31,913 nucleotides of DNA from a virus, in the IMG/VR virus record IMGVR_UViG_3300045988_119030, positions 149,411 through 181,323 of that record; one strand, 5' to 3'. Below, one piece after another: positions 2,493-31,046 of this stretch. Below the pieces are notes generated by a model. It was not told the DNA's origin. It saw only the letters and a program-made list of their open reading frames with translations, and did no database searches. Positions within the stretch are counted from its first letter, which is position 1; every line of letters starts with the position of its first letter. A program made the translations under genes and the position numbers.

Positions 2493-2996
2493 TTAAATTG
2501 AATAAAAGCAATTAGGACATAAATACTAATTATCATCTATTTTAAATAATGGAATATTACTTACTTGTAAATTACATTTAAAGCATTGTTTATTTTTATA
2601 AATTTTTGGTATAAAAATTTCTATATTTGGCTCAAATAAATTTAAAAGATTATTAGATATTTTTTGAAAGTAAATATCTTTTTCTTTATTAGTATCATTA
2701 TAATTATATTGTAAAATATATTTACATATTACTTTACAATGATTTAAATTAGTTAATTTTAATTCTTCTACTGGAATAATAATATCAGATATATTATCTA
2801 AATTTATTTTAGATTTAATTGTATATTGTATTTGAAGAATTATAGTTTTATCTTTTTTAATAATTCCTAAATTAAAGCAAACAAAAAGTATCCAATAGTC
2901 ATAAATACTATTACTGTCAAAATCAAAAGATAAAGCTCTTATTTTATCCCAAAAGATTTGTTCTGGAATTTTAAATCCGCCATTACTAAATTTCAT
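2493..2996 (-). CDS. Hypothetical protein (~167 aa) with C-terminal 4-Cys zinc ribbon (CFKC...CPNC). Contains an in-frame TAG at 2526-2528
   Basis: Track ORF 2526..2996 ends in TAG. The frame continues QYLCPNCFYSI to a TAA at 2493-2495. RBS GGAGAG before ATG 2996. Confidence 0.5.
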
Positions 2997-3154
2997 TTAA
3001 CTCTCCATTAAAACAATACTCATAATAATTATTTGTATCTTTTTCAATTTGAATACTCCGAGGATAATCTAACTCCCAAGATGTTCTTTTATTATAAAAC
3101 TATAAAAAATTTTTTACTATATCTTGTATAAATTCTTTATATTCATCGTAAGTA

Positions 3155-5212
3155 TCAATCATATAAATCATACTCTTCTTTCTCAAGATAATTTAAAAAT
3201 TGATCATGGGCAAATTGATAATATATATATCCATTAAAATAATTTAATATTGGATATATTTCTTTTTTTAAATTATCAAATGATTTAATATATTCTCCAT
3301 CTAAACAATGAAAATTAATAGTATTGTTTTTTATATCACCTATAATTTTTTTACTTAAAGGGCATAAACAATCATTATTTATTTGTTTTAAAGGATAAAT
3401 TAAATTTATTTTATATAAAATATAATAACTTGTTTTAATAAAATTTTCTATAAAATAATTATTATGTTTTGTATAAATTAAATTATCATATTCATAAAAA
3501 TATTTTATTTCATATAAAATTCTAATAATTATTGATTGTAATATTTTATTTTTTTTATCTAAATTTAAATTATAGATATAAAGAAACTGTAAAAAGAAAA
3601 TAACTATTTTTACTAAATAATCTATAGCCTCAGACAATCCCGTATGAGATATGTTACCTGGATTAGTATTTAAATCAATTATATAATTTCCAATAGTCTA
3701 ATCAATTAGTTGTCCTTCTCCATATAAATTACATAAATCAAAAAATAAACTATCTTCGCATAAACAAAAATTACTATATTTTATATTATATTTCTATAAA
3801 AAACTTCGTTTTAAAAGTAATCCAAGTTTATTATCAGGAATAATAAACTATATAAAATCATTTTTTTCGTTATTTTTTATAAAATTATAAAGAATTTCTA
3901 ATTCATTATTTATATTAAATAAATCATCTGAATCCCAAAATAAAACATATTCATTAAAAGAATTTTCTAATCCTACGTTTCGTGCGACTCCAGGTCCTTT
4001 ACGAGTAAGATTTTTAAAAAAGAAACAAGGAAAATCCGCGTTATCAAATATTTTAATAACTTTTCTCTCACAAGCTGAATTATCACTTATTAAATATATA
4101 CAACAATCTTTAATAATTGTTTGCGCTCTTAATGAATTATATAAATCAATTATCTAATTATCATTAAGGTTATAATAAGGAATAATTATATCTATTTTGC
4201 CATCAATAAATCTATTTATACATTTTTGTAAATAGTAATTATTATATCGAAAGTCAATTGGAGTTTTACCATTTAAAAATTCCTAATAATTATTTAAAAA
4301 ATCTTCTTTATTATTTATAAGTTTTAAATAAAAGTCGTAGTCTTCAAAATAAGCATTTTCCATTGATACAGTAAATTCTGATTTAATGTTATAACATTTA
4401 TGCCATAGCCAAGAAGCGGTTGGTAAAGTAGCATCACAATATTTACAAATTTTCTTAGGTGAAAATATAAAATTATGTAAATCATCTAAGCTATTTATAT
4501 CTTCTAACTACAAATAATCTTCTTCCTCTTCTGGAATATTCAAATTATATTTTTTACAATAAATATCTAAGAATGCGGAAAAAGGACAGATATATATCTT
4601 ATAATTTTTTAATGTAAAACAAGGTATTTCATGTGGACAATATTGATAATAAGCCTTTGCTGGATCAGTATCTCCATTTTCATTTACAAGCTACTAACGC
4701 ATAAATAATCGCTCTTGATGATTAAAAGCAATACCATATTCTTGGCATTCTTCAACATCTTCATAATTTGTATAATTACTATAAGCAGTTATGTCGAACA
4801 TTATATCCATATCAAGGTATTCTTTTTTATGTTTAATAATATTTTTCATATTTAATCCATTAGATAAAACTTTTAATTGAGTTTTTTCTTTTGGAAATAT
4901 TTCACGAGCTATTTTACATAATTCAAATAGTTGTGGGTGAAGAGTTGGCTCTCCACCCACAATCATAAATACTTTTATATTAGGAATTTTTTTATTAGCC
5001 ATAATAACCTAATTGCGGAAATCATTTATATCAATAAACCAAGGCGTGGCTAAAGGTGAAAAATGATTACATCCCGCGCAATTAAGATTACAATGATCTA
5101 CTACTTGTATTTCTAAGCTTACACCATCATAAACAGATTTCCAAAGACTATGTGTATATGGAGGAATCCCACGATAATCTTTATCTTTCTTTATCTGTAT
5201 ATCGTTCATCAA
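3155..5212 (-). CDS. Radical SAM enzyme (N-terminal) fused to or translationally coupled with a GT-A/family-2 glycosyltransferase domain plus a C-terminal domain of unknown function. 12 in-frame TAG codons, including a TAG-TAG pair at 4691-4696
   Basis: One frame from ATG 5212 to TGA 3155-3157 with zero TAA/TGA. It links track ORFs 5009..5212, 4694..5002 and 3155..3637. Motifs: CNLNCAGC (CX3CX2C) and GGEPTLHP (rSAM). IDIIIPYYN...SLRAQT, ARNVGLENSFNEYVLFWDSDD (GT2 Rossmann start, ARN...DxDD). Cys-rich stretch after the rSAM core. Confidence 0.6.
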
Positions 5213-5762
5213 ATTCTCCTAATATATGTGTATTATAATCAACTAATTCTCTTATTTGATTATTGCGTTCATGTAAAAAACATTGAGTACAAATTTCATT
5301 TAAATTGTTTAAAGGTTCATGGAAAAAATTGCAATAATGTTTTTCAAAATCAACATATTTACAATACTTATCGCATATTAAAATATTACTATCTTTATTA
5401 TAAATCACAGGATGATCTTCTCGTAAGCGGAAAGATAGCTGAATTTTAAACATTAAAGTTCCTTGATAAGAATATAAAAAAGTTTTATAAAATATATCTT
5501 GGACTTTACTTTCAAAAGTAAATTTCTATTTATCTGTAGTAATAAGCTCAATGCATTCTATTTCATTCTAATCTATAGCTTTAACTTGCTAATAAACCTA
5601 ATTTAGAAAAGAATAATCAATATCATTCTAATTTTTAATTATTTTTGCAAAAACTATTTCTTTTGGAAAATTTAATTGAAATATAATATCATCACATTGA
5701 CGCTCATTAAATTTAACAGATTTTAAAATTTCTTTATCTGAATTAATAAAATTAATAACCAT
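5181..5762 (-). CDS. Hypothetical small Cys-rich protein (CDKYCKY...HYCNFF...CTQCF). Possible N-terminal extension to ATG 5762 containing 6 in-frame TAGs. The core 5181..5453 is a clean ORF
   Basis: Frame from ATG 5762 runs into track ORF 5181..5453 with only TAG interruptions. The high TAG density makes the extension uncertain. Overlaps the rSAM start by 32 nt. Confidence 0.3.
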
Positions 5763-6090
5763 TTCGTTTATCAGGAATTCCTTTTAATCGATCTCCTAAG
5801 AAATATCTATATAATTCATAAGAATCAGCAATATTATCGCATAAACAATTATTATTATTTTCATTGTTATTATTATCGTTATTATTATTATTATTATTAG
5901 ATTTTTCTGCATGATCTGTAATAATTATTTTAATGAAATTATTGATAATAGTATTAATTTCTTCATTTTCACCATTATTTTCAATCCAATTTAAATAAAT
6001 AACATATAAAAGATCTCTATAATCTTCTACATTGCTATAATCAAAAGTTTCAATTAAATGATTAATTTGATTTTTCATTTCTTCAATCAT
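5752..6090 (-). CDS. Small Asn-rich protein (112 aa) with a poly-N tract and a C-terminal CLC motif. Candidate precursor peptide or accessory protein of the rSAM-SPASM enzyme
   Basis: ORF overlaps the stop of the upstream rSAM-SPASM gene (ATGATTGA coupling). Low-complexity KSNNNNNNNDNNNNENNNNCLCDN. Confidence 0.5.
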   Translation of the reverse strand: MIEEMKNQINHLIETFDYSNVEDYRDLLYVIYLNWIENNGENEEINTIINNFIKIIITDHAEKSNNNNNNNDNNNNENNNNCLCDNIADSYELYRYFLGDRLKGIPDKRNGY

Positions 6091-7489
6091 TGTAATACCC
6101 CAAATTATGGCAAAGATTTAACCAATTTTCTTTATATTTTTCATCTGGAAAATAATTTTTTTCTAAAGCAATTTTAGTTAATCCTAATTCACAATAACTT
6201 TTAACTAAAAAAGATATTCTTGTTTTATGTAATTCACAAACACTTTTAGGCGGTAAAAATAAATCTCCAGTAGCTTCGAGTGCCGCACCAAGGCAAAGTT
6301 TTAAACAAAACGGATCATAAGGACAAGTAACACATCCAACATTTAAATGAGTATTGTTTGTCTTAATTACTGTATAAAGACTTGGATTAATTGCTGTAAT
6401 TCCAATAATTTTATCATTTTCAACTTCAAATTTACCGCCAATAAATTGCTGATAAGAAGTTCTGTGGCAAGGAACTAATTCCATAGTAGCAACATATAAA
6501 CAAGTTTGATGAGAAATTGCACAAGTGTAATTTCCATCTTTCCAAGTGACAGTTGGTTGTAATGGATCATAATTGTGTAATCCAATTAAAGATCCTTCTT
6601 CCCCATCTCCTAAAAAGATATGTCGAGCTAACTTATCTAATGAACTATCATTCATTTGGAATCTAATTTCAAGCATGTGAGTTAAGAATTCAAGATAGTG
6701 ATTTAATTTTTCTTCAGTCCATTCATCATTACGAACTTCTAAGAACATGGGCTGAAATTCATCGCGAGGCCCTTTACATAATTTATATTTCTCAAATTGT
6801 TCAAGCCACCAATCATAATTTTTAATAGCGCTTTCAATATTATTTGGAGAAATCATTGGATGAATACCGCAACAGTTCTTAGAAAGAAATTGCATAATCT
6901 TATCATAATATTCAAAATCTTTATTTTCTTCTCTTACACTATCATAAGGACCATCTACAGAACAAGATAAATTTAATTCCATTTCAAGGTCAAGAAATTT
7001 TTGAAGATATTCTTCCACTTTAGCTGCTTTTTTATCATCAGCAACAAAACTAAAGTTATTGGGGAAAGCAATACGAGGATGATGATTCTTAAAAAGATTA
7101 GGATGTTCTTCAAAGAGAGCTCCATAATATTTTAAAAGTAAATCAAAAATACTAAAGCCTAAATTATCATAAAATAAATCTCCAGCAAAGAGTTCTATTT
7201 CAAGGAATAAGACTTTTCTTTCGTTAAAAATATAATCTAATATAATGTTCATATTTTTAAGAATTTTTTCATTATTTGCTCTTGTTTCAAGTGGGTATAA
7301 ATCTTTTCCGTAACGAGCAATATAACAATATTCACACTTTTGATTACATTCTGGACGAATAATAAACTCAAAAGAGCTTTCATTTATCCAATATCCTTCT
7401 TCTTTATCCCCTTGATTAAAGCAATGGTTATCAAGAAATTTTTCAAAATATTTATTATTATCTAAAATACAACCTTCACTAATATTCAT
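6083..7489 (-). CDS. Radical SAM / SPASM-domain enzyme (peptide/protein-modifying maturase class), 468 aa
   Basis: CNQKCEYC (CX3CX2C) near the N-terminus. C-terminal CAISHQTC...C and GCVTCPYDPFCLKLC (CX2CX5CX3C SPASM signature). Start overlaps the TAA of the upstream gene by 1 nt. Confidence 0.8.
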   Translation of the reverse strand: MNISEGCILDNNKYFEKFLDNHCFNQGDKEEGYWINESSFEFIIRPECNQKCEYCYIARYGKDLYPLETRANNEKILKNMNIILDYIFNERKVLFLEIELFAGDLFYDNLGFSIFDLLLKYYGALFEEHPNLFKNHHPRIAFPNNFSFVADDKKAAKVEEYLQKFLDLEMELNLSCSVDGPYDSVREENKDFEYYDKIMQFLSKNCCGIHPMISPNNIESAIKNYDWWLEQFEKYKLCKGPRDEFQPMFLEVRNDEWTEEKLNHYLEFLTHMLEIRFQMNDSSLDKLARHIFLGDGEEGSLIGLHNYDPLQPTVTWKDGNYTCAISHQTCLYVATMELVPCHRTSYQQFIGGKFEVENDKIIGITAINPSLYTVIKTNNTHLNVGCVTCPYDPFCLKLCLGAALEATGDLFLPPKSVCELHKTRISFLVKSYCELGLTKIALEKNYFPDEKYKENWLNLCHNLGYYND

Positions 7490-8991
7490 TAATTGTATAC
7501 TCCTTGTTCTGTATATCTATCGTCATCCCAACATTCTTTAGGTAATACCCAATTATTTTCTCTATCAACATAATTATATAAAGCAGAAGAAATTCTTAAA
7601 GTTCCAATGCTTCTTAATAATTCACTACCAGTAGAAACCAAATTATTATAAGTACAAGCAAGATTTTTTGTTGTAATAAAAGCTAAGTGAAGCAATTTAT
7701 TATAATCATATTTATACACTGAATTTAATTGTCCGCACTCATTTAGCATTTGATATTCATTTAAAATAGTTTGAAACATGAATGGAAAAGAAGTGGTTTT
7801 AAATAAATTATATTTATAAAACACCTTATCAATTTCTTCATCTGATGCTGTTAAAAGATTAACACAAGAATGTCCTCTTGTCATTAAGTCTTTACGGGAA
7901 AGAGTGTCAATAGTGCCATCATCTTTAATGTTGTTTGGGTTTATATCAAACATATAATTTTGACAAGATACCATAGTACCGTCCCATAAAAGCTTTAATT
8001 CACTCCAATTAGAGCCACAAAAATTATTCATAGATAATGATCTAATAACTTCTTCATTTTTATCTTTAATGCATTGTAAAGCTTCTTCAATTGTTAAAGG
8101 GCATCCTTTTTGAGTCACATATTCTCCCAAATCGCATAAACTATCTTCATAAACACTTCTATATCCAACGATTAAACTAACTGGCATTCGTGGATCATGA
8201 AAATCAGACACATCAATATTAATTAATCTTTGTAAAAAAGATTCATACTCAATACGCTCATCCACTGATCCGTCTCTTGGATGTTCTGGACAAATAGAAA
8301 CTGAAGGATTAAGCGTAATAGCTTGATTAATAACTTTTTCATTTAATTCATATCCAAAAGTATCTAATTCTTTATAATAATCATGAACTTTTTCAAGAGT
8401 ATCTAATTGATTAATGAGCATTCCAGACAATACACCATGTAATTGTATTGAAATATTTGTATGATTAAATTTAATTTTATTTAATCCCTCTATAACTGTT
8501 GAAATAGTTTGAAAAATACGTTCATTATTTGCATTTCTAATATTATTAGTAGAATAAGCTCCATCATATGAAAATTGAATTGATAAATTCACATCATCTT
8601 GAGTTGTTAATTCATCTACTCTTTTAGCAAAAGCAATTATACGTTCTGGAAAATCCATTCCATTAGTTGAAAAATCAATATTTCTAATATTAGGAAAAAA
8701 TTTAAACCAATCATCTAAATGCTCTGTAATAAGATGAAGTGTTAGTGTTGGTTCTTGACCCCAAAATCCAAAATTATCAATTATATATCTATCAAGGTCT
8801 AATCTTTTAAAAATTTTTTTTACATTTTCAAGATAAGAACCATCAGTTAAAGCTTTAATTGTATCTTGTTGTAATTTAGCAGAACAACCATTTAAACTAT
8901 TTTCTATCATGCAATACTAACAATGTAAATTACACCCACATGAAGATACGAGTGTTACTGCTCTAACATCTATATCTGTATTTTTTTTCAT
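7489..8991 (-). CDS. Radical SAM enzyme (~500 aa) whose CX3CX2C motif is split by an in-frame TAG at 8917-8919 (SSCGCNLHC-TAG-YCM). True start is ATG 8991 with RBS AAAAAGGAG
   Basis: Track ORF starts at 8910. Upstream same-frame reading gives MKKNTDIDVRAVTLVSSCGCNLHC*YCMIENS. GFWGQEPTL aligns with the GGEP motif. Confidence 0.7.
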
Positions 8992-9017
8992 AAATTCTCC
9001 TTTTTCTCTTAAAAAAT

Positions 9018-9770
9018 TTAAGATCTTGATCTTCCTGCTCCACTTCTATTCGCGCTGTTAGAAGTATAAGCCCCTCTATAGGAGCAAGGTCTATAACTGC
9101 CTCTATGAGTATCATTATTAGAGCCTCTATGGCTTGTATAATAAGTATAATTACTTGAATAATTAGAACTATTATAAGCATTATTAGAACTTCTATTAGA
9201 ACCGTTATAAGCATTATTAGAACCTCGATGAGTTCCATCATAAGCATAGTACCCATTTCTATGTGTACCATTATAACTAGCGTCATAAGCATTATTAGAA
9301 GCTCTATAACTACCATTATAGCCACCATCATAAGCATAATTAGAGGCTCTATAACTACCATCATAACTAGCGTCATAAGCATTATTAGAAGCTCTATAAC
9401 TACCATTATAACTACCATCATAAGCATTATTAGAAGCTCTATAACTACCATTATAACTACCATCATAAGCGCAAACCGCGTTTACTTCTTCAAGTTTTGT
9501 CCTAATTTGTGATAATGGAATATATCTAGTTAACTCATTTACTCTTGGGGCTGTAAAGGTGTCAAAAGTTGCTTTTGTACCAACGTAAGATACATTTCTT
9601 AAATTTTCAATTTCGTTCTTTATTGTGATAACATCTCGCGCCCCAACTCTTTGTTTAGTCTTATCAGGAATAGCAGTTCTACTTTGAGAAAATCTTGTTT
9701 GCGCTGTATTTAAGTTATCATATAAAGCACGAACATCAGCCCATGAAATTCGACTTCCTGTTCCTGCCAT
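9018..9770 (-). CDS. Tyr/Asn/Ser/Gly-rich tandem-repeat protein (250 aa): a ~95-aa N-terminal domain followed by ~15-aa repeats AYDGSYNGSYRASNN. Second gene of the operon, just upstream of the three rSAM genes
   Basis: Clean ORF, RBS AAAAAGGAG, TAA stop. Overlapping track ORFs 8963..9466 and 9228..9512 are repeat artefacts. Confidence 0.7.
   Translation of the reverse strand: MAGTGSRISWADVRALYDNLNTAQTRFSQSRTAIPDKTKQRVGARDVITIKNEIENLRNVSYVGTKATFDTFTAPRVNELTRYIPLSQIRTKLEEVNAVCAYDGSYNGSYRASNNAYDGSYNGSYRASNNAYDASYDGSYRASNYAYDGGYNGSYRASNNAYDASYNGTHRNGYYAYDGTHRGSNNAYNGSNRSSNNAYNSSNYSSNYTYYTSHRGSNNDTHRGSYRPCSYRGAYTSNSANRSGAGRSRS
9111..9470. repeat. Tandem direct repeats (45-bp unit, four perfect or near-perfect copies at 9291-9470, degenerate 30/45-bp copies upstream) encoding the repeat tail of the protein above
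   Basis: Exact 45-bp duplication ATTATTAGAAGCTCTATAACTACCATTATAACTACCATCATAAGC at 9381-9425 and 9426-9470. Confidence 0.8.
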
Positions 9771-9784
9771 AATTTTGCTCCTTT

Positions 9785-10195
9785 TTAATTATTAATTGAA
9801 TATTTAATTACAAAATCAACAGAAGAATTATATTCTTGTGCAAAAACTTGGTCCCCAATATCATTACTATACTCAAAAGAAAGTTCTTCAATATCATTTA
9901 ATTTCTTATCAAAAATAACACGATAATCTTCTGAAGTTGTTAAATAAGCAACTGTTATTTTATCCATAGTCTCTCTATTTAACTTTTTAATAATATTAGC
10001 TCCCTATTTAGCCAAATTTACTTTTTCCATATCATATTCTTGGCTAAATTCACGCATACGAAGAAAACAGAATTTGTTTTCAGTATTGGAACTAGAAGTA
10101 ATAGTAAAAGTAATTGGACCTGTAAGGATAGTATCCTCTACGTTTCCATCTTTATTAGTAATAGTAATTTTAAAAGTATTATCTAAATTTACCAT
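9785..10195 (-). CDS. Hypothetical beta-rich protein (136 aa) with one in-frame TAG (10004-10006) that joins track ORFs 10004..10213 and 9785..9967. First gene of the long operon
   Basis: Start ATG 10195 preceded by GAGGAGG at 9-nt spacing. The ORF ending in TAG continues in frame into the next ORF. Confidence 0.55.
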
Positions 10196-10224
10196 TTTAA
10201 TTTTCCTCCTCAAAAATTTTATAA

Positions 10225-10256
10225 AATATAGGATATATTATTTATTATCCTATATT
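10225..10256. promoter_or_regulatory. 11-bp inverted repeat AATATAGGATA-N10-TATCCTATATT in the promoter region of the operon. Candidate operator
   Basis: Palindrome read directly. Lies between terminator 10345-10374 and the first gene start at 10195. Confidence 0.4.
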
Positions 10257-10344
10257 TTATAAAAAAAAATTTTATTAATTTAATCTTTTTTGATTAAGTA
10301 TTTAAGTCTTTATTTAATTTATATTAATATAATAACAAAAAAAA

Positions 10345-10375: not shown

Positions 10376-10681
10376 TTAACTTAATCCTAATCTTGCCTTT
10401 AGATCAGCAATATTTTTCTTTTCATCTGTAGTAATTTCAATCGGGGTTTCTCCACCTGCGGTTGCCCCATCTTCAAAATTCAAAACATTTGAATCCGCGG
10501 TTGCGCCTGCTTCACCGACCGGAGTCTTTGGGCATGTCATACTAATAGCAATCTGAATTCGCTCACCATTCTCATTAGCCCAAAGATAATACTTTTTATC
10601 TCGCTCGCCGATCCAATCAGCGCCAAATACTTCCGCCATTTTCTTAGCGATCTGTTCCTTAGCTACTGCACCTTTAGCCAT
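10376..10681 (-). CDS. Hypothetical protein (101 aa)
   Basis: Clean ORF, TAA stop, ~45% GC. Confidence 0.65.
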   Translation of the reverse strand: MAKGAVAKEQIAKKMAEVFGADWIGERDKKYYLWANENGERIQIAISMTCPKTPVGEAGATADSNVLNFEDGATAGGETPIEITTDEKKNIADLKARLGLS

Positions 10682-10693
10682 ATCTAATTCTCC

Positions 10694-21273: not shown

Positions 21274-21274
21274 A

Positions 21275-22121: not shown

Positions 22122-22378
22122 TAGATAGTCTCCTTATCAACTTCCATAATCTTTACATAGTAGTCGCCATAGCTGTGAACGAAAAACCCATCAAACGAAG
22201 GCTTTTTGCAATATGAGATAGACTTATTTTTTTCCCAACGCTCTTGCGCTTCCTTTTCTTTCTTTCGTCCTGCTTCAAAAGCCTTTTCCTCAGTAGAATA
22301 AAGGCTAAGCACCGCGGTATCATCACCGCCAAAACTATCATAATGATAACAAAGAGCATAAACAGTCATTAATGACAT
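22121..22378 (-). CDS. Small hypothetical protein (85 aa)
   Basis: Clean ORF. Confidence 0.55.
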   Translation of the reverse strand: MSLMTVYALCYHYDSFGGDDTAVLSLYSTEEKAFEAGRKKEKEAQERWEKNKSISYCKKPSFDGFFVHSYGDYYVKIMEVDKETI

Positions 22379-22653
22379 ACCTCCGTATAATAAGTTCCAA
22401 GAGAGCCATCTGCATTAATCCAAGAGACAATTAGCACATAAACCATTTCGATGCCGATTGTGTCGAAGACGCAGGGGATTTCAATGTTATACTCGCGGAT
22501 TCGACCCTCTCCCTTAGCCTTAGAGAAAAGAATCTCAACCGCATTAGCGATATGAACGCCGTCCTTAGAAACGAGCATTGCGTATTCATCATCTTCTGGA
22601 TCAGTATACTTTCTACCAATCAAATCCCAAAGCTCTACATACATAATTTTCAT
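22369..22653 (-). CDS. Small hypothetical protein (94 aa)
   Basis: Clean ORF. RBS AAAGGAAAT. Confidence 0.6.
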   Translation of the reverse strand: MKIMYVELWDLIGRKYTDPEDDEYAMLVSKDGVHIANAVEILFSKAKGEGRIREYNIEIPCVFDTIGIEMVYVLIVSWINADGSLGTYYTEVCH

Positions 22654-22706
22654 TTCCTTTCTTAACTTTATATATATATTATATTATATTTTTTTATAAA
22701 AATAAA

Positions 22707-22740
22707 ATAAGGACTTATGAATTAACATAAGTCCTTATTG
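22707..22740 (-). terminator. Hairpin AATAAGGACTTATG-AATTAA-CATAAGTCCTTATT after gene 22742..23332
   Basis: 14-bp perfect stem. Confidence 0.6.
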
Positions 22741-22741
22741 T

Positions 22742-23332
22742 TTAATGAACTGAATGAGCATCGCCCATGTAATAAATAGTTTCACCTACGTCTGTGATTT
22801 CACCACAAACGGTAATGTAAGAACCTTTCTTGGCATCCTTAATGAAATCGTAAACATCAGAGCCCTTGTCCATACTCCAATGGATATTATCTAAGAGAGT
22901 AAAATCGTCAGGATCAGATACAATGGTGAAGTATTTACCATCACTATCAACAGTGTCAAGATAACCTGATACCTGAATATACTTACCAGTATACTCTTCC
23001 TCAGCTTTGATAGGATAATCTTCTACCATATCAATCATCTTAGAAAGAGATTCGGATGAATATTCAGCGGTTTCCTGCTCATCGGTCTCTTCGCCTGAAT
23101 CAACCGAACTCTGAGACGAGGCTCCCGCACTTTCCACAATCGGAGTGCGGTATACAGTAGGTTCAGGATCGGGATTCCTAATGACATAATCAATCCCCGT
23201 AAAAATGATAAGCACAAGGAGAATATGGAACCAAGTCTTATCGTAGAAAGGAACCTTTACATTGCCTCCACAAAACGGACAAACTTTTGACTTATCAGAA
23301 ATGGGCTGACCGCAATGTTTACAAATAATCAT
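22742..23332 (-). CDS. Membrane protein with an N-terminal zinc ribbon (CKHCG...CPFCG), one TM helix, an acidic linker and a C-terminal beta-rich domain
   Basis: Motifs and hydrophobic segment seen in the translation. Confidence 0.65.
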   Translation of the reverse strand: MIICKHCGQPISDKSKVCPFCGGNVKVPFYDKTWFHILLVLIIFTGIDYVIRNPDPEPTVYRTPIVESAGASSQSSVDSGEETDEQETAEYSSESLSKMIDMVEDYPIKAEEEYTGKYIQVSGYLDTVDSDGKYFTIVSDPDDFTLLDNIHWSMDKGSDVYDFIKDAKKGSYITVCGEITDVGETIYYMGDAHSVH

Positions 23333-23343
23333 TTTTATTCTCC

Positions 23344-23748
23344 TTATTTCAGCTCAATAAATTCAAGCCGATCAACATATTCTCCGGCATAGATCTTCAA
23401 CCAAGGGTTCGCGCGATTAGATTTTGCGCTCGCAAGGGTTTCATTATACTCTTGGATGTCTTCATAAAGTTCGGTTGCGCCAAGGTTATTATCATTATCG
23501 GTATAATCCTGTTCAAGTCGCCATTCAAGAGCTTCTCGACGAGCCGTATATTTCTCGTAAAGAGAATCACTATATACATTTTCATTGATAACCACAATAG
23601 TAGAAAATACCATTACGATTCCAAAGATAACAGTGCCGATGAAGCCAACAATCGAACTAATACAACCAAGAGCAGAATATCTATTAGAACTCCAAACTAT
23701 GAGAGCGATAAAGCCTGCAAGCGCAAGAATAAAAACTACATAAAGCAT
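23344..23748 (-). CDS. Membrane protein (134 aa, two N-terminal TM segments)
   Basis: Hydrophobic N-terminus. Confidence 0.6.
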   Translation of the reverse strand: MLYVVFILALAGFIALIVWSSNRYSALGCISSIVGFIGTVIFGIVMVFSTIVVINENVYSDSLYEKYTARREALEWRLEQDYTDNDNNLGATELYEDIQEYNETLASAKSNRANPWLKIYAGEYVDRLEFIELK

Positions 23749-23761
23749 AACTATCTTCTCC

Positions 23762-23968
23762 TTAATGAATAAAATATTGAATTACTCCATACACTCCTGA
23801 TATGATTGGGAGCATAGAGATTATAAGTAGCAAACTTCCAGTAATGACACAAGTGTCAATTAAAAACGTATCTTCGGGAGCACTTGCGCCGTCAGCAAGC
23901 TTGAAGATACATAAGGCAAGCCTTGCTATAATTAATCCAAGAATAATTTCTACAATAAACTCTACCAT
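23762..23968 (-). CDS. Small two-TM membrane protein (68 aa), holin-like topology
   Basis: Strong RBS GGAGGAGG. Hydrophobic segments. Confidence 0.5.
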   Translation of the reverse strand: MVEFIVEIILGLIIARLALCIFKLADGASAPEDTFLIDTCVITGSLLLIISMLPIISGVYGVIQYFIH

Positions 23969-24044
23969 ATATCCTCCTCCTTAATCTAAGTCATCGAACA
24001 AAACGGATAAAATGCCAAGAGCGCAAAAACAAAGAATAATTACT

Positions 24045-24215
24045 TTAAGCATAAAAGACTGACTGAATGAAGCCGGCAAACAGGCAAAGCAACATACCCA
24101 TACCGCAGTAATAATACTTCTCATTGAGAGACATAGTATCATCATCCAGTAGATCCATATACATAAAGCCGAAAAATACTAATATAATAAATAGCATAAT
24201 AATCATTTCTCCCAT
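24045..24215 (-). CDS. Small membrane protein (~56 aa)
   Basis: Start ATG 24215 after RBS GAGGAGG. Overlaps the end of the phosphoesterase gene by 13 nt. Confidence 0.35.
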   Translation of the reverse strand: MGEMIIMLFIILVFFGFMYMDLLDDDTMSLNEKYYYCGMGMLLCLFAGFIQSVFYA

Positions 24216-24943
24216 ACCTTTTTACCTCCTCGCTTCTGCTTTCTCTTGGTCGCGGTGTCGATTGTTTTTCTGTGGACGCTCCCGATTTTCGCAGTCGGAC
24301 CATTTTTCATGAACTGATTCAAGTTCAAAGGGGCGGGACCAAACACATCCACACAAACATTCTTGTGATAGATGTCCGTCTCTTTATAATTGTGGTCGTG
24401 GCCATGAAGATTGAGAGCCCAGTCCTGCTTAATCGGTTCGTGAGAAAGCATAAGTTTCTCACCAATAAGGAGCGCACCATCATACACTTCGTCAAAAAGA
24501 CCGTTATCCGCGGAAACCTCCCAATATTCAAAGGGAGTGTGGAAATCAAATCCCGAATCAATAGAATATTTACAATCAGGATAAAGACGCTTCATTTCCA
24601 TGAGCGCTTCGTCCTTTTGGTAGTAATCCATAGAGAATTTCTTCTTGACGATTTTGCGCTTATAGTTTTCAGATCCCGCATCATGGTTGCCCTTGATGAG
24701 AACCTTATAACCGGCGCGCAGTTTCCGCACATAGGAGATATTGCCTACATCACCAAGATGAATTAATAGATCGCTTCGACCGCACTTAGAATTAATTATT
24801 TTAACAATTTCTTCGTCGGAAGGACGATTATGAATTCCCTGATGAAGATCTTCGTCTCCAAAATGAGTATCACTAATAACCCAACAAGTTTGTAGATTTT
24901 TCCATCTATCTAAAAAACTTTCATAGACACCAGGTAAATTCAT
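24203..24943 (-). CDS. Calcineurin-like metallophosphoesterase (phage Ser/Thr phosphatase-like, 246 aa) with a C-terminal Lys/Arg tail
   Basis: Motifs DTHFG, GDVGN, GNHD and HGHDH. Confidence 0.75.
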   Translation of the reverse strand: MNLPGVYESFLDRWKNLQTCWVISDTHFGDEDLHQGIHNRPSDEEIVKIINSKCGRSDLLIHLGDVGNISYVRKLRAGYKVLIKGNHDAGSENYKRKIVKKKFSMDYYQKDEALMEMKRLYPDCKYSIDSGFDFHTPFEYWEVSADNGLFDEVYDGALLIGEKLMLSHEPIKQDWALNLHGHDHNYKETDIYHKNVCVDVFGPAPLNLNQFMKNGPTAKIGSVHRKTIDTATKRKQKRGGKKVWEK

Positions 24944-24955
24944 AATTATTACTCC

Positions 24956-25885
24956 TTAACAAATTCTAAAAATTGTTGTATCCAATTTCAAATCATTAAT
25001 TGATAATTTATCTAAATGAAAATATGGGATTCTAATTAACGGGATGTTATTTTCTTTACACCATTGATTTTTAAAAGCATCATGTTCTTTTGTTTTTTCA
25101 AACTTTTCTAATGTATTCCAACCAGTTCCAGATTGATAATGCTATATTCCATCAAATTCAATTAAATAAGAATTATCAATATAAAAATCAAATTTAGCTT
25201 TATGGTTAGTATCCTAAAATTTACAATTTTCAAAAGTTTTTTCACAAATATACTAAATATTATGTTCTTTTAATAAAGAGATAATTTTTTCCTAACCTGC
25301 TGATTGTAAACAACCACAAGATTTACTTTGTCCTTTTCTTAAAGTAGTTCCTGATACAATTTTTTGATTGCCACAAGAGCATTGGCATAACCACATAGCA
25401 GTATTATGCTAATTAGATCCACTACGTTTTAACACTGTCCATCGACCAAAAGTTTGTCCTGTTAAATCAATTGTTGTAAGTTCACCGATCTTTTTATGAA
25501 TATAACAACCACATGAAATAACGGCGCCACTTACTAAACCATCTTTACGAATACTTTTAATAGTTCCACAATCACACTAACATTTCCAATAAGTATGCCC
25601 TTTTCCTTCTGTTCTATCATATCCTAAAACTGTTAGCATACCGAATTTTTTACCTGTTAAATCTTCTAACTGTTTTAAACGTTTCTAACATCCACACGAA
25701 GTTGTATGATTTGAAGTTAAATGAGAAGCAGAGACTACTGTCTTATTACCACATTCACATTGACATAACCAATACGATCCTTTTCTTGAATATTCAACTC
25801 GATATAAAACTGTTAATTTTCCAAAATGCTAATTAGTCAAATCTTTTGCTTGTCCTACTGGAATCTATTTATAAATTTTTTCCAT
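24956..25885 (-). CDS. DNA endonuclease-like protein: three N-terminal zinc-finger repeats (FG.LTVL...W.CQC.CG...SCGC) plus a C-terminal DUF559/Vsr-like PD-(D/E)xK domain (DFYID...IEFDGIQH). Nine in-frame TAG codons
   Basis: Region has no track ORF. Frame from ATG 25885 (RBS AAAAGGAG) to TAA 24956-24958 contains only TAG interruptions. TAG occupies positions that are CAA (Gln) in the sister repeats. Confidence 0.6.
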
Positions 25886-25979
25886 AAAATCACTCCTTTT
25901 CTATTATATGTATAAATAGAAAAGGATAAAATAATAAAATTTATCCGAAGTCGCCAACCCGATTATTCAACCGGCCTCC

Positions 25980-26255
25980 TTAAAATGCGTAAGCATTAAA
26001 TTTATACATATAGAACTCGCCATCCATAAGAAGAAGTTTATCAATCTCTTCTCGATGATCGATCTTCCACCAATCAGGAGCAGGAAAAGGAAGATCGTAA
26101 TACTCGATTCGCTGAGTTTCCATAATATCTTCTTCGATTGCACCTTCGAGGAAAGCAAGATATAACTCTTCCGCTTCTGCTTCTGAAATGTTGGCGAATG
26201 TCCAAGACTTACCAGTCATTTCATCTTCGATTTTATAACAAGTAATTTCTTTCAT
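25980..26255 (-). CDS. Small acidic protein (91 aa)
   Basis: Clean ORF. Confidence 0.55.
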   Translation of the reverse strand: MKEITCYKIEDEMTGKSWTFANISEAEAEELYLAFLEGAIEEDIMETQRIEYYDLPFPAPDWWKIDHREEIDKLLLMDGEFYMYKFNAYAF

Positions 26256-26266
26256 AGTTATTCTCC

Positions 26267-26587
26267 TTACATTTCAACCGCATCAACGAAATCAATGAAA
26301 ACATCATTGGCGACCTCGTTCATCATATCGAGGTAAGAAGAAAATCTCCTTGTCCACTCGCCGGTCATTTCGCCGTGGTAAAGATACCAATCATAATCAG
26401 AATCTTTCTGAATCATTTCGAACTGACGCTCCATAAGACTATCATCGACCATATCTCGACAATATTCCATAAACATTTCCTGCATATCGGCTTCGGACGC
26501 ATTCAGGAAATAGAAATTATGGTCTCCGGCCGTATCACAAAGAATACCAATAGAATGAGTTTTAATCTTAGAATTAGAAGTAGTCAT
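26267..26587 (-). CDS. Small acidic protein (106 aa)
   Basis: Clean ORF. Confidence 0.6.
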   Translation of the reverse strand: MTTSNSKIKTHSIGILCDTAGDHNFYFLNASEADMQEMFMEYCRDMVDDSLMERQFEMIQKDSDYDWYLYHGEMTGEWTRRFSSYLDMMNEVANDVFIDFVDAVEM

Positions 26588-26620
26588 AATTTTTATTTCC
26601 TTTCTTTACTTTATATATAT

Positions 26621-26649
26621 ATTATATATTATTTTTTTAAAAATGTCAA
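26621..26649 (-). promoter_or_regulatory. Conserved promoter TTGACA-N17-TATAAT
   Basis: tgtcaa at 26644-26649 and attata at 26621-26626. Confidence 0.55.
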
Positions 26650-26680
26650 AAAAGGATTTGCGGTTTGCGCAAATCCTTTT
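26648..26680 (-). terminator. Hairpin AAAGGATTTGCG-N5-CGCAAATCCTTTT after gene 26686..26901
   Basis: Stem plus U-tract. Confidence 0.65.
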
Positions 26681-26685
26681 AGAGA

Positions 26686-26901
26686 TCAGAGAACGGGAGC
26701 ATAATTATAATAAATAATCATGTCTTCCAGTGCATCTTTGTAAAGTTTTGTATCAAATTTACGACAATGGAATCGTTTCTCGACATTCTCTTCGATCGCG
26801 GACATAGCGATTTCGAGAGCGTCAGATTCACTTACGTTTGTAGCGCAGTAAATCTCATCACAAGGCGCGTCATAAACGAATACGACAGGCATATGATTCA
26901 T
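26686..26901 (-). CDS. Small hypothetical protein (71 aa)
   Basis: Clean ORF. Confidence 0.5.
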   Translation of the reverse strand: MNHMPVVFVYDAPCDEIYCATNVSESDALEIAMSAIEENVEKRFHCRKFDTKLYKDALEDMIIYYNYAPVL

Positions 26902-26959
26902 ATATTATTCCTCCATTAATTGATTTTACCCAAAATTTTTGTTATAATATATTTAGAAA

Positions 26960-27199
26960 TTAAAAGAGTTCAGTCGCATCAAAGAGATTTAAGAACTCTT
27001 CGGCAATCTCAGATGATACAAGTAAACTTGTTGATCCATTGAACCAATCAATGTAAATACGAGTAAGTGGACTACCACCGGCTTCCGCGATTTCATCAGC
27101 ATACTGTTTAGAATCAACGGGAGAGAAGCTAACTGCATTAATGTTATTTGTGTTAATAAGATATTTATAACCGCGGAAATTGCGAATAATTACATTCAT
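26960..27199 (-). CDS. Small hypothetical protein (79 aa)
   Basis: Clean ORF. Confidence 0.55.
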   Translation of the reverse strand: MNVIIRNFRGYKYLINTNNINAVSFSPVDSKQYADEIAEAGGSPLTRIYIDWFNGSTSLLVSSEIAEEFLNLFDATELF

Positions 27200-27480
27200 C
27201 TAAATGCCTCCTCAGAAACAAAATTTTTGAGTTGTCTTATAACTCTCATACCATCAGGATCTCTATCGGTAAAGGTGTATTCATAGCGAGATTTATCTTT
27301 TAGACAAAATTCAAGCTTTGTTCCAGAAGTCTCGGTGGAGATATCATCGTCATCTGAGTTATCCATAGTAATGCGGTTAGCCAAAACCACGACAATCTCA
27401 TTTATATTAAGGAAAACACGGTCGCCGTTAGACATTTTTAAATAAATCAATTCACCTTTATTCATTTTACTTCTCCACAA
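27196..27480 (-). CDS. Small hypothetical protein (94 aa)
   Basis: Clean ORF, 4-nt overlap. Confidence 0.55.
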   Translation of the reverse strand: MWRSKMNKGELIYLKMSNGDRVFLNINEIVVVLANRITMDNSDDDDISTETSGTKLEFCLKDKSRYEYTFTDRDPDGMRVIRQLKNFVSEEAFR

Positions 27481-28066
27481 TATAATCTTTCGCTACATCT
27501 GTTCCTTCTGGAATATAGAGATAAGTGCGCGTTGACTTAGAACAAATGAAGAACCACTCTCTCCAATCGCCGTAGCGCGGGAGTCGCTTCTCAACGTGCG
27601 GAACCTGATTAGAGTAAACAACTACCGTGTCATTTGCCGGATAATTCTTAGTGCTTGTAATGCCATCAGCGCTAAGGGTAAGATAAGTGTAATAAATACT
27701 TTCACCCTCGAAAGCGCGGTAAGTATAGATATTGCCATCATCATCCATACTTGTTAACTCTTGGGCTTCCGCAATCGTATAATCATATTCGGAATAATCT
27801 TCCTTAACAGAAGACATTATAACTCCGCCAAACATACTTACGGCAAGATAAAGACAAACGCCGATCCAAAAGGCAGGAATAATTTGACGGGGAATGTCAA
27901 CGCGGTCGCGGTGAGACCAATTGCGGAAGCGCTTGGCCTTAGGATCGGAAAGAGTGCTGTAATAGCCATAGCTACAATATGCAGAATGAATGGCGAAAAT
28001 CAGAAAAATAATTAAGGTCGGTAGAACAAATCCGCCCACGAGCGTTTTCAAGAAGAAGATAAGCAT
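27467..28066 (-). CDS. Membrane protein (199 aa, two TM segments)
   Basis: Hydrophobic segments. Confidence 0.65.
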   Translation of the reverse strand: MLIFFLKTLVGGFVLPTLIIFLIFAIHSAYCSYGYYSTLSDPKAKRFRNWSHRDRVDIPRQIIPAFWIGVCLYLAVSMFGGVIMSSVKEDYSEYDYTIAEAQELTSMDDDGNIYTYRAFEGESIYYTYLTLSADGITSTKNYPANDTVVVYSNQVPHVEKRLPRYGDWREWFFICSKSTRTYLYIPEGTDVAKDYIVEK

Positions 28067-28080
28067 ATTTAAAAACTCCT

Positions 28081-28530
28081 TTAAAGAATAGGTTTAAGTT
28101 TATTGCAACAATTGAAATCTCTCATACAGCCATTTTCTTCGCTGAAACAAGAACAACCATTTTGGCAAGTATTACGAATAATGTCGGGATTACGGACATT
28201 CGTGATGGCTTGCATATTTCCAACGATTTCTCGCTTTTGGATCATTTTCGGCGTGTCGGGAGAATCATTAAACGCGCAGTTCACATTTTGTTCACAATTT
28301 GCGCATGTACTAAGTTTTGCCCAACATTTATCGCAATAAGTGTTGCCTTGATCGTCGATGATCATTTGCTTATGGAAAATTGGAGTATGACATGCTTTAC
28401 AAGTGTAATATTCACCGCAAAGAAAATTATCGCAGATCGCATGATTTGGGTCAATTGTATTGCCTGTGATTTGACATAATCCGGTCGTTGGCCGGTAATA
28501 ACCGCAGTTATTACAATAAAAAGTCATCAT
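28081..28530 (-). CDS. Cys-rich protein (149 aa) with multiple CxxC pairs
   Basis: YCNNCG...CDNFLCGEYYTCKAC...CDKC...CANC read from the translation. Confidence 0.65.
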   Translation of the reverse strand: MMTFYCNNCGYYRPTTGLCQITGNTIDPNHAICDNFLCGEYYTCKACHTPIFHKQMIIDDQGNTYCDKCWAKLSTCANCEQNVNCAFNDSPDTPKMIQKREIVGNMQAITNVRNPDIIRNTCQNGCSCFSEENGCMRDFNCCNKLKPIL

Positions 28531-28781
28531 AGCACTTTGGCAGAATATGGAGCATCTTCGCCATCAAATTTTAGAATCTTGTTAGCAAGATCGTGATTGA
28601 CGCGCAAAGGGCCATCATCAAGAGGAGTAAATGCAACAGTAATAAGATCGTCGAAATACTCTTCGGCCCAACGGCCAGCTTCTGCGAGAGTTTCCGCGAA
28701 GATAAAACCGCACGTAAGTCTATCCATTTTATCAGAGTCGTCCCAATAACGTGCTTCATAATAAACGGGGCATTGTTTCAT
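28527..28781 (-). CDS. Small hypothetical protein (84 aa)
   Basis: Clean ORF. Confidence 0.55.
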   Translation of the reverse strand: MKQCPVYYEARYWDDSDKMDRLTCGFIFAETLAEAGRWAEEYFDDLITVAFTPLDDGPLRVNHDLANKILKFDGEDAPYSAKVL

Positions 28782-28797
28782 ATTTATTTTCCTTTCT

Positions 28798-29136
28798 TTA
28801 AGAGATTGTAGAGATTAGAAAAATCTCGGGATCATCAAGGCTTTCGATGGGGATTTTGAGAAACTTTGCGTAAGCTTCCTTCATTGTGTTATTAAGGCGA
28901 TAATACTCCTGCGGAGCGATGAAGATATTGTCGATGCGGACGGCCTCGCCTGCGGAAGACTCACCGAGAAGATAGCCGAAGATAGGATTTTCGTCGTTAT
29001 CATAGTCGCTTGCGCGATGCCAATAACCTTCCTCGGTAAGCTGTTCGATAGCCTCAGCCATATTATCATAGTTTTCAAGAAGGTTCTTGGGGACTTTATA
29101 ACCACACACGAGCTTAGAACCAAAATCAACAGACAT
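28798..29136 (-). CDS. Hypothetical protein (112 aa). First gene transcribed leftward from the divergent control region
   Basis: Clean ORF. Confidence 0.6.
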   Translation of the reverse strand: MSVDFGSKLVCGYKVPKNLLENYDNMAEAIEQLTEEGYWHRASDYDNDENPIFGYLLGESSAGEAVRIDNIFIAPQEYYRLNNTMKEAYAKFLKIPIESLDDPEIFLISTIS

Positions 29137-29640: not shown

Positions 29641-29846
29641 TTAGATTTGAAGTATATATGAAGGAGGTGAAAGTATTGTCAATAGAATAGAAAAGATTTC
29701 CTGCTAATGTAGATATGAATATATTAACTTTTTTAAATAATAAGAAGATAAATGGTGAATTATATGCTTATTTGTAGAGTTTATCTGATTATAATGTGAT
29801 TAATAAATAGCATAATATTTATAAAACTTATGTATTAAAAAAATGG

Positions 29847-30308
29847 TTGCCGATTCAAAGTAAGATGTGTCAAATGCTTGGTATTAAAAGTCCTAAAACA
29901 TTAAAAACGCATTTGAATTATTTAATTGAGCAAGGGTATATTATCGAAGAAGAAGATAGATATATATTACCTGAAATGGAGAGTATATATTTTCTTATTC
30001 CGCTACCTACATTAAGATATATAAATGATAACTGTAAAGAACATATTATAAAGATATATATTTATTTAGGATAGCGTTATAAATATGCGTTAAATAATGG
30101 AAGTTAGTATGAATTTACATTAGAGGAAATTGGAGAGCATAGTGGTATAAAAGTAAAGAATAACAGCAGGGGCTATGAGATTATTAATAATGCTTTAACA
30201 TTTTTATAGAATTCAGAATTAATTGATTATGTTAGCTTTTTTGATGGATAGACGCAGAAAAAGAAATTAACAAAATTTAGTTTTGAATATAAAAATTAGA
30301 ATAGGTAA
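29847..30308 (+). CDS. Putative DNA-binding / replication-initiator-like protein with two HTH-type segments. Five in-frame TAGs (30072, 30105, 30207, 30249, 30297). Start is TTG 29847 or ATG 29865
   Basis: Track ORF 29847..30074 ends in TAG. The frame continues to TAA 30306-30308. Flanked by iterons on both sides. HTH-like segments LGIKSPKTLKTHLNYLIEQGYI and FTLEEIGEHSGIKVKNNSRGYEIINNAL. Confidence 0.45.
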
Positions 30309-30423: not shown

Positions 30424-30473
30424 TTGTATGATACAAACGATCGGCATCCGCCTCACTTTGTATCATACAAACG
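30424..30473. promoter_or_regulatory. Two near-identical palindromes GTTTGTATGATACAAAC and TTTGTATCATACAAACG about 30 bp apart. Candidate operator pair upstream of gene 30506..30709
   Basis: Palindromes read directly. Confidence 0.45.
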
Positions 30474-30505
30474 TTTGATTTTTAAATGAAAAGAAGGGTA
30501 ATAAA

Positions 30506-30709
30506 ATGAAAAGAAATTTATATCAATTTGATTTTAGTATGTATAGTTTAGCAGGAATGCCAGGTAATGATAAAAATTTACAATCAGATTTTGCCAGAGG
30601 GTTGATAGAAATGTATTATAAAGGTAGATATACAGGCAATAATAAATTAGTTAAATAGTATTTTGAAGAATTAACTGATAAATATATGATTGATCATAAT
30701 ATTAAATAA
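30506..30709 (+). CDS. Small protein (67 aa) with an in-frame TAG at 30656-30658
   Basis: ATG after AGAAGGG. TAA stop at 30707-30709. Confidence 0.4.
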
Positions 30710-30722
30710 GGAGTAAAAAGTA

Positions 30723-31046
30723 ATGGCATATAGTTATGAAGATGTAGTAAGAGGTGGAAAGGGTAATATGTCAATAATAAGATTTGTAAGAGGAACGCAA
30801 GAATAGTTTGATAAAATGGATAAAACAGGTATTATACAACCTAATATATATATGAAAGATGATATTCTTTATTTTGTTGTTCCAGATGATACAAAACCAG
30901 TAAAGGTAAAGTATGATGATAGAAAAGTAGAATGGAATGAATCAGGAGTAGGAAGTTTAGTTAAAAATAATGATAGACCTGAATCAATAGAAGAGAATCC
31001 ATTCTTACAAGAGTCAATTAACTCGGATACTACGTATCCTCGTTGA
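30723..31046 (+). CDS. Hypothetical protein (107 aa) with an in-frame TAG at 30804-30806 that joins it to track ORF 30816..31046
   Basis: RBS AAGGAG before ATG 30723. TGA stop. Confidence 0.5.

Follow-up and report, generated by a model that had tools for sequence, protein, structure and literature searches.

The window analysed here, a stretch of 31,913 nt with 32% GC from the viral record IMGVR_UViG_3300045988_119030, makes up the final 32 kb of ENA contig ERZ27260930 k119_3975 (190,642 bp; position in that contig = window position + 158,691). Comparison of its genes with those of related loci showed, at the level of sequence, that TAG is a sense codon and never a terminator in this phage. 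Together with the tRNA genes found in close relatives this makes it very probable that UAG is decoded, most probably as glutamine, by a phage tRNA with anticodon CUA (tRNA(CUA)), that UAA and UGA serve as stops, and that the genome is only partly recoded. The phage is one of the human gut; near-identical or related contigs of 190–197 kb were found in several human-gut cohorts as well as in IMG/VR. In total, about 70 kb of the ~190 kb genome were read, comprising the window, its flanks and loci of relatives. Loci of the same contig, of twin assemblies, of relatives or of homologues are given L-numbers, L002 being the flanking DNA of the window's contig. Locus searches used two TAG-rich proteins of the window as single queries, a radical SAM–GT2 glycosyltransferase (rSAM-GT2) fusion and a nuclease, and the nearest relatives found were 92–94% identical.

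TAG as a sense codon

The gene set was taken from the public gene calls for the contig and its 100% identical twin and comprised 50 genes, 49 of them complete and almost all on the minus strand. The public calls for the contig already translate through TAG. In this set, 14 genes contained a total of 40 in-frame TAG codons, and internal TAA or TGA codons were absent. Two of the 40, located in two genes of the higher-GC core described below, are doubtful, so that the reliable range is 12–14 genes with 38–40 TAG. The complete genes terminated in TAA (38) or TGA (11) and in no case in TAG, as the first-pass annotation of this DNA had claimed; the flanking genes in L002, L005 and L006 likewise ended in TAA or TGA, with no TAG terminator.

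Open reading frames (ORFs) of at least 100 amino acids covered 75% of the window under the standard code and 89% with TAG as sense. Calculated from the genes, coding density was 0.894 with TAG as sense versus 0.687 if the same genes were stopped at their first TAG, and the neighbouring loci of the relatives gained 0.14–0.25 in coding density when TAG was read as sense. Upon re-calling, fragments fused into proteins with Pfam domains across the TAG sites. The densities, the homologues, the domain spans and the lack of TAG terminators among 49 genes bear out the original proposal that TAG is sense and that TAA and TGA stop. All ORF chains named in support of it were found where they had been placed. 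The accompanying generalization, that each ORF ending in TAG enters another protein-like ORF, does not hold for all of them: 2526..2996 gains just 10 codons, and in 2983-3171 a TAG lies directly before the TAA.

The longest case is the frame running from 5251 to 3155 on the minus strand, which spans 698 codons with 11 TAG and no TAA, its sole TGA being the terminator. With a mononucleotide model about 56 TAA or TGA are expected in this frame, and the probability of finding none is ~7e-26; the off-frames of the same region contain 49 and 104. In 100 shuffles of the window the longest frame free of TAA and TGA reached 265 codons, compared to the 698 observed. The gene within this frame starts at an ATG at 5209 and comprises 9 of the frame's TAGs. 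For the 2058-nt frame 5212 to 3155 the first-pass annotation was right in finding no TAA or TGA besides the terminal TGA and in calling this beyond chance, whereas the 12 TAG and the GC content of ~25% that it gave have to be corrected to 9 and 22%.

The gene 3155..5209 (minus strand, GC 22%, TGA stop) encodes the rSAM-GT2 fusion of 684 aa, with TAG at codons 67, 172, 173, 234, 309, 352, 454, 472 and 504; its Gln-type codons are distributed over 9 TAG, 13 CAA and 2 CAG. Both Pfam domains, Radical_SAM (residues 35-145) and Glycos_transf_2 (341-462), run across TAG sites. In a search of 1.8 billion representative proteins, full-length rSAM-GT2 homologues of 580–690 aa were retrieved, 35–44% identical and aligned over residues 11-657. 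A TAG inside the radical SAM CX3CX2C motif (CNLHC-TAG-YC) had also been reported. This TAG (8917-8919) is real, but it belongs to a separate radical SAM gene of 500 aa, 7489..8991 on the minus strand, of which it is the only TAG, and not to the fusion, whose own CX3CX2C motif (CNLNCAGC) is without TAG. In the separate gene Pfam Radical_SAM is matched from residue 16 only if TAG is translated; under the standard code the ORF begins at 8910, after the CX3CX2C motif.

An organization under the standard code, with pseudogenes, truly split short genes, or sequencing and assembly errors, has in its favour that a mechanical parse of the region into short ORFs is possible and that some of the TAG-bearing genes have no known function. 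The frames are, however, broken by TAG only, though TAA is the commonest of the three triplets, and domains and motifs extend across the TAGs in proteins with full-length homologues, while no gene ends in TAG. Moreover, the independent assemblies L003 (Logan) and L006 (ENA, from another sample) were 100% identical to the window where shared, and every tested TAG site of the window recurred as TAG in one or more related loci, with 39 site matches and diverged relatives included. Since the TAGs are identical in independent assemblies and their sites recur as TAG in related loci, they are not assembly errors, which the first-pass annotation had named as a way in which its claim could fail. The standard-code reading is thus refuted by the TAG-only interruptions, the shared sites and the homologues, and we attribute practically no probability to it.

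Glutamine and the tRNA with anticodon CUA

The codons that align with TAG are most informative in the nuclease, a homing-endonuclease-like protein of 309 aa (24956..25885, minus strand) that combines three zinc-binding repeats with a nuclease domain at its C-terminus. It contains 9 TAG among 19 Gln-type codons, has 4483 homologues and matched PHROG families phrog_374 (HNH endonuclease, 2.6e-60) and phrog_9084 (homing endonuclease, 1.2e-25). Codons were read directly from genome assemblies at 79 homologous loci, which avoids the circularity of gene callers that write Q for TAG. At residue 248 (EFDGI-TAG-H), a near-invariant Gln, CAA or CAG was present in 71 of the 79 loci, TAG in 4 and a Thr codon in 4. 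The codons aligned with residue 19 were Q in 37 loci, K in 18 and TAG in 9; those at residue 103 were K in 49 and Q in 36. When mean BLOSUM62 scores were added up across the nine TAG sites of the nuclease, Q came out highest (9.7), ahead of E (7.2) and K (6.0); R reached 0.5, and S, Y, L and W had negative values. For the nine TAG sites of the rSAM-GT2 fusion, compared to 63 representatives, Q again came first (−0.4), ahead of S (−3.7) and E (−3.9).

Changes between relatives point in the same direction. Among relatives with a nucleotide identity of 85% or more, 19 distinct TAG differences were found, with CAA as the counterpart in 7, CAG in 3, TAC in 2 and other codons once each. Seven of the ten Gln codons, those being CAA, require two nucleotide changes, and such an excess of CAA is predicted by the synonymous path TAG-CAG-CAA. 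Glutamine is therefore the best-supported residue for TAG: its first rank in both families, the site at residue 248 and the changes to CAA and CAG all agree with the assignment made at first pass.

A residue other than Gln would have to be Glu (through a non-discriminating glutamyl-tRNA synthetase (GluRS) and failed amidation), Lys, Tyr, Ser (in view of a long variable region in one tRNA allele) or pyrrolysine, and we consider this improbable. In its favour, the nuclease family gives E and K the next-best scores after Q, Glu is the residue aligned with nuclease position 198 in 57 of 76 loci, relatives show three TAG<->TAC/TAT differences, a 90-nt tRNA(CUA) allele carries a 17-nt insertion in the variable region, and ARAGORN labels any CUA anticodon 'Pyl'. 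These points are outweighed by the top rank of Q in both families, with much poorer scores for Y, L, W and S in that of the nuclease, by the invariant-Gln site at residue 248, and by the fact that 10 of the 19 differences lead to Gln codons, seven of them in two steps, as compared to one GAA and no AAG, GAG, TCG or TTG. In addition, a 73-nt tRNA allele has an ordinary short variable loop, and its carriers L020 and L023 use in-frame TAG as well. Pyrrolysine in particular was rejected, as TAG at up to 3.7% of the codons of one window gene is too dense, the aligned residues are Gln-like and the tRNA folds into an ordinary cloverleaf (57.7 bits). UAG usage in pyrrolysine systems is far sparser. 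What is shared with pyrrolysine decoding is a UAG read as sense via a tRNA(CUA) and the ARAGORN label; pyl genes were not seen in the DNA read.

The tRNA scan of the window itself gave no hits. Outside the window, 4.4 kb past position 1, a tRNA array begins, of which the part read contains 13 tRNAs, and a 379-aa AAA protein embedded in this array was used to collect relatives. A homologue search with this protein gave cluster representatives only, at 95% identity or less. Seven IMG/VR contigs were obtained in this way, with 89–97% nucleotide identity to the window's contig over aligned stretches. All seven of these close relatives carry a tRNA with anticodon CUA in syntenic position, ~4 kb further along the array and just upstream of tRNA-Tyr. 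By synteny, it is expected around record position 145.5 kb of the window's contig, ~13.2 kb ahead of window position 1, and we infer that this contig carries the tRNA(CUA) as well.

Two alleles of the tRNA(CUA) occupy the same site with identical flanks, one of 90 nt (L014 15168-15257) and one of 73 nt (L023 15138-15210). The 90-nt allele, found in six IMG/VR contigs only, owes its length to the 17-nt variable-region insertion and scored 57.7 bits with the Rfam tRNA model (threshold 29), whereas the 73-nt allele is an ordinary tRNA. In both, U1 is mispaired with position 72 and the discriminator is G73. A weak or unpaired 1:72 combined with G73 is an acceptor feature of tRNA-Gln in the identity set of E. 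coli glutaminyl-tRNA synthetase (GlnRS) and in supE. The phage tRNA(CUA) is presumably charged with Gln by a host enzyme, either GlnRS or GluRS followed by GatCAB. It resembles the E. coli supE (glnV) tRNA-Gln(CUA) and Gln-mischarging amber suppressors in the CUA anticodon, the weak or unpaired 1:72 and G73. Unlike in supE, one of the phage alleles has the 17-nt insertion and the host may lack GlnRS; furthermore, both phage tRNA(CUA)s are, over their whole length, only slightly similar in sequence to E. coli tRNA-Gln and to a phage tRNA-Gln(UUG) in L024.

This L024 (IMGVR_UViG_3300018878_000121) is a more distant relative, with 52% amino acid identity in the AAA protein and a coding density that rises from 0.34 to 0.55 with TAG as sense. 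Its tRNA-Gln(UUG) (14117-14191) takes the place of the close relatives' tRNA(CUA), just before tRNA-Tyr. Two further tRNA-like sequences were seen in the loci read. A 71-nt gene (L002 16158-16228, ~3.8 kb before window position 1, and at the same site in L014, L016, L017, L021 and L023) has a 6-nt anticodon loop, ATTTAA (CTTCAA in L017), and was labelled 'Lys|Stop' by ARAGORN, with no assignment. An 80-nt sequence, whose anticodon is UCA and whose acceptor stem pairs poorly, is present in L021 (16911-16990) and L023 (16489-16568) only; a TGA suppressor would be unexpected, because TGA is a true stop in the window, where 11 genes end in it.

Uneven use of TAG among genes and comparison with recoded phages

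The use of TAG is bimodal across the genes of the window. Fifteen AT-rich genes (17–31% GC) hold 38 of the 40 TAGs, next to 89 CAA and 10 CAG, whereas 35 core genes (33–49% GC) have 2 TAG, 54 CAA and 63 CAG in 5642 codons (Fisher P=1e-9 between the classes), and the TAG share decreases with gene GC (Spearman rho −0.72). The core genes form a block at 10376..29136 on the minus strand that is essentially TAG-free and interrupted by the nuclease insertion only. Their in-frame TAG frequency is 0.35 per 1000 codons versus 13.5 per 1000 off-frame, a 38-fold difference, and judged by these counts TAG is kept out of the core genes as strictly as a stop would be. The two doubtful core TAGs are located at 13852-13854 and 17809-17811; one lies 15 codons into a gene with an alternative downstream start, the other lies within a 53-aa ORF. 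This partial recoding, with 35 of 50 genes compatible with the standard code, was overlooked in the first-pass annotation.

Within the AT-rich class, the TAG-bearing genes use TAG at 6–67% of their Gln positions. Three genes of the AT-rich cassette at the start of the window are low in TAG (YcaO 0/13, rSAM 6083-7489 0/11, rSAM 7489-8991 1/18), compared to 38–67% in their neighbours, and this per-gene pattern is maintained in relatives that are 92% and 76% identical. Base composition alone is therefore no full explanation, since the AT-rich cassette genes differ among themselves in TAG share. Outside the cassettes, TAG is used by conserved genes on both sides of the tRNA array: three of them contain 4, 5 and 4 TAG, two with a glycine-rich domain, and others encode an NAGPA+SPOR protein (2 TAG), a Flg_new-repeat protein (7 TAG) and an Mtd_N tail-fibre-like protein (2 TAG).

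Under a partly recoded genome, the 35 TAG-free core genes could be translated by host ribosomes at once and unaided. The TAG-bearing genes would yield full-length product only once tRNA(CUA) is present, charged and outcompeting release factor 1, and termination would rely throughout on UAA and UGA, both of which release factor 2 can read by itself. Candidates for dependence on the suppressor are the YcaO/radical-SAM/GT2 cassette genes, the homing-endonuclease-like gene and the divergent plus-strand module and, just outside the window, the tail-fibre-like and cell-wall-binding genes. That the TAG-bearing genes depend on a suppressor is shown at the level of sequence; that the dependence delays or gates their expression we infer from the same pattern. 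The expression timing pictured here agrees with the model already proposed in the literature on recoded gut phages (bioRxiv 10.1101/2021.08.26.457843; PMC9523058).

Several observations weigh against decoding of UAG as Gln by a phage tRNA in a partly recoded genome. The alignments separate Q from E and K only moderately, several TAGs fall at variable alignment positions, and that at residue 198 of the nuclease falls on the conserved Glu. The tRNA(CUA) was seen in relatives only, as the DNA read from the window's own contig ends ~3.8 kb short of the expected site, and the 17-nt variable-region insertion of its commoner allele is a trait seen in tRNAs for Ser, Leu and Tyr. Genes for a release factor, for GlnRS or another aminoacyl-tRNA synthetase (aaRS), or for any further code-change function were not found in the ~70 kb read, a negative that refers to the Pfam domains of the called genes in the window, L001, L002 and L004-L006 and to the proteins beside the tRNA(CUA). 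Of the decoding genes looked for since the first pass, the suppressor tRNA was thus found in all seven relatives, but a release-factor gene was not. As to the uneven distribution, changes between CAR and TAG among relatives numbered 4 in the AT-rich class versus 0 in the core (P=0.10, suggestive only), most of the TAG-free core genes have no known function, and calling them 'early' is an assumption.

A host that itself reads TAG as sense, with the phage mirroring its host and the phage tRNA being incidental, could be suspected from the nuclease homologues, as 36 of the 79 loci have in-frame TAG and many of them lie on contigs of metagenome-assembled genomes (MAGs). These MAG contigs are 100–175 kb long with several nuclease copies, however, and look like binned phage contigs. 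Reassignment of TAG to Gln is not known from any bacterial lineage. In addition, the 38-fold avoidance in the 35 core genes is what a TAG that still terminates during their translation would produce, and phages matched to a recoded host use the codon in ~90% of genes, as compared to 26–71% for those with standard-code hosts (bioRxiv 10.1101/2021.08.26.457843). A recoded host was rejected on the basis of core-gene avoidance and the partial share of recoded genes, and we regard it as highly improbable.

A more serious alternative retains TAG = Gln but sees no regulation in its uneven spread. AT-biased mutation (CAG to TAG) would accumulate TAG where AT-rich genes are under weak constraint, evolve fast or were acquired recently, and highly used core genes would purge a slowly decoded codon. 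For such neutral accumulation speak the AT-class ratio TAG:CAA:CAG of 38:89:10, which is within about two-fold of the composition expectation, the drop of TAG share with gene GC, the location of most TAG-rich window genes in strain-variable cassettes, and the larger number of SNPs reported in recoded genes (PMC13037316). It does not account for the unequal TAG shares of the AT-rich cassette genes, the persistence of the per-gene pattern in the 92% and 76% identical relatives, or the heavy TAG load of conserved non-cassette genes beside the tRNA array. As a full explanation it is possible but not the favoured one. The neutral and the regulatory view are compatible, and AT-biased mutation likely contributes too.

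Going further than timing by decoding, TAG might act as a gene-by-gene expression lock, such that mobile and accessory cassettes passing between recoded phages, among them the YcaO/radical-SAM/GT2 island, homing endonucleases and the variable plus-strand module, are written in a 'TAG dialect' and are silent without tRNA(CUA) while selected cassette genes are kept TAG-free. Those TAG-free in the island, namely YcaO, the 292-aa protein next to it and a radical SAM enzyme, would then be made first or independently. This is a speculative extension that we think rather unlikely; if true, recoding would be both a barrier and a timing device for horizontally moving phage cargo, possibly a peptide-modification pathway.

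Reassignment of TAG to Gln (genetic code 15) has been described in gut phages of the crAss-like, Lak, Sapphire, Garnet and Amethyst clades (bioRxiv 10.1101/2021.08.26.457843). Gln at recoded TAG in gut phages has been confirmed by metaproteomics (PMC9523058), and large surveys of jumbo phages routinely screen for recoding (PMC13037316). Like these code-15 phages, the phage studied here has TAG in a subset of genes, TAA and TGA stops, a low-GC genome from the human gut and, in its relatives, a tRNA(CUA); a standard-code-compatible gene set stands beside a recoded one that includes tail-fibre-like genes and a cell-wall-binding protein. With ~28% of genes recoded (Sapphire 26%) and a ~190 kb genome it is similar to the Sapphire clade, a likeness that rests on these two values. 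Unlike in the code-15 phages, the TAG genes of the window are mostly part of strain-variable accessory cassettes rather than canonical structural or lysis genes, and, unlike the code-change module of Jade and Lak, no release factor or aaRS gene was present in the portion of the genome read. In TGA-recoded Agate phages a homing endonuclease is preferentially recoded (bioRxiv 10.1101/2021.08.26.457843). The mobile endonuclease of the window is similarly rich in the recoded stop (9 of 19 Gln-type codons), but the codon is TAG (Gln) here and TGA (Trp) in Agate, and the gene here is free-standing.

The phenomenon, its likely mechanism and the proposed timing role are thus already published, and the finding refines a known picture and opens no new question. 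It adds a ~190-kb human-gut phage lineage, present in several cohorts, to the known TAG-to-Gln phages, and provides a clean example of partial recoding, where core genes shun TAG and accessory and tail-fibre-like genes would rely on a phage tRNA. In practical terms, the standard code fragments about a quarter of the phage's genes and hides the iron-sulfur motif of the radical SAM protein, the 684-aa fusion and the homing endonuclease. A functional reading of the YcaO/radical-SAM cassette depends on the correct code.

Strain-variable cassettes and other features of the window

Most of the AT-rich TAG genes of the window are located in strain-variable modules. The largest is an accessory cassette at 1..10338 (minus strand, 18–31% GC), which contains 19 of the 40 TAGs and reaches ~320 nt beyond position 1. 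As a whole it measures 10.7 kb (L002 2055-12713) and comprises YcaO, three radical SAM genes, one of them fused to GT2, a repeat protein and small ORFs. The cassette is absent from L016 and L017, whose flanks are 94–96% identical and where window position 10339 joins L002 12714 directly; terminator-like hairpins are found at both junctions. YcaO itself (605..2392, minus strand, 595 aa, Pfam YcaO 7e-26) has 24% GC and is TAG-free at 13 Gln-type codons, also in the 92% and 76% identical relatives (binomial P=0.015 versus the AT-class mean). From its gene content, the cassette looks like a phage-carried peptide-modification gene set, similar to those for ribosomally synthesized and post-translationally modified peptides (RiPP-like). 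Directly upstream of the radical SAM genes lies a 250-aa protein (9018-9770, minus strand) with no family match, whose C-terminal half consists of AYDGSYNGSYRASNN-like peptide repeats, encoded by 4.6 tandem copies of a 45-nt unit with 90% matches. The protein may be a precursor with several cores or have a structural role as a repeat protein.

The remaining TAG-bearing genes of the cassette are smaller and are all encoded on the minus strand. A 193-aa protein with no assigned function (5181..5762) has 5 TAG, as have its orthologues in L039 and L040. The single TAG (10004-10006) of the 136-aa protein 9785..10195 is kept in the same two loci. In the 167-aa protein 2493..2996, the one TAG (2526-2528) is followed by ten codons that provide the second CxxC (CPNC) of a zinc-ribbon-like pair, and the L023 orthologue uses TAG for 9 of 10 Gln-type codons. 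The 62-aa ORF 2983..3171, a gene in the public record, has 2 TAG, one being that directly before its TAA stop.

The nuclease gene, too, is an insertion, L004, L005 and L009 having 187 nt in place of window 24757-25975. The family is multi-copy on many MAG contigs of 100–175 kb. Of the homologous loci (L043-L121), besides the 36 with in-frame TAG, four have in-frame TGA, for which Trp is the usual aligned residue; members of the family therefore pass between phages that differ in their recoding.

The third variable region is the plus-strand module at 29.6–31.0 kb, which differs among relatives. Its 216-aa protein (29658..30308, plus strand), with a weak helix-turn-helix (HTH) signal, uses TAG for 8 of 12 Gln-type codons, a larger share than in any other gene of the window, and the version in relatives is 207 aa long with 6 TAG. 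Two small plus-strand genes, 30506-30709 and 30723-31046, have one in-frame TAG each. Just upstream of 29658..30308, the divergent intergenic region contains a 43-nt tandem repeat (29488-29599, 2.7 copies), which may be an operator or iteron array.

No match was obtained by megablast of 15 kb of the window against GenBank phages, and tblastn with one core protein gave distant Bacillus jumbo-phage matches only, with no close annotated relative among GenBank phages. In the core block, a 368-aa ORF at 11998-13104 (minus strand, GTG start) has no entry in the public gene calls. It showed a strong peptidase match (phrog_34186, 5e-43), weak matches to Pfam M28 and M20 and zinc-ribbon motifs at the C-terminus, and it shares 130 nt, read in a different frame, with the gene that follows (10694-12127). 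Finally, repeats of 19 nt and 29 nt are present at the extreme end of the contig (31819-31913).

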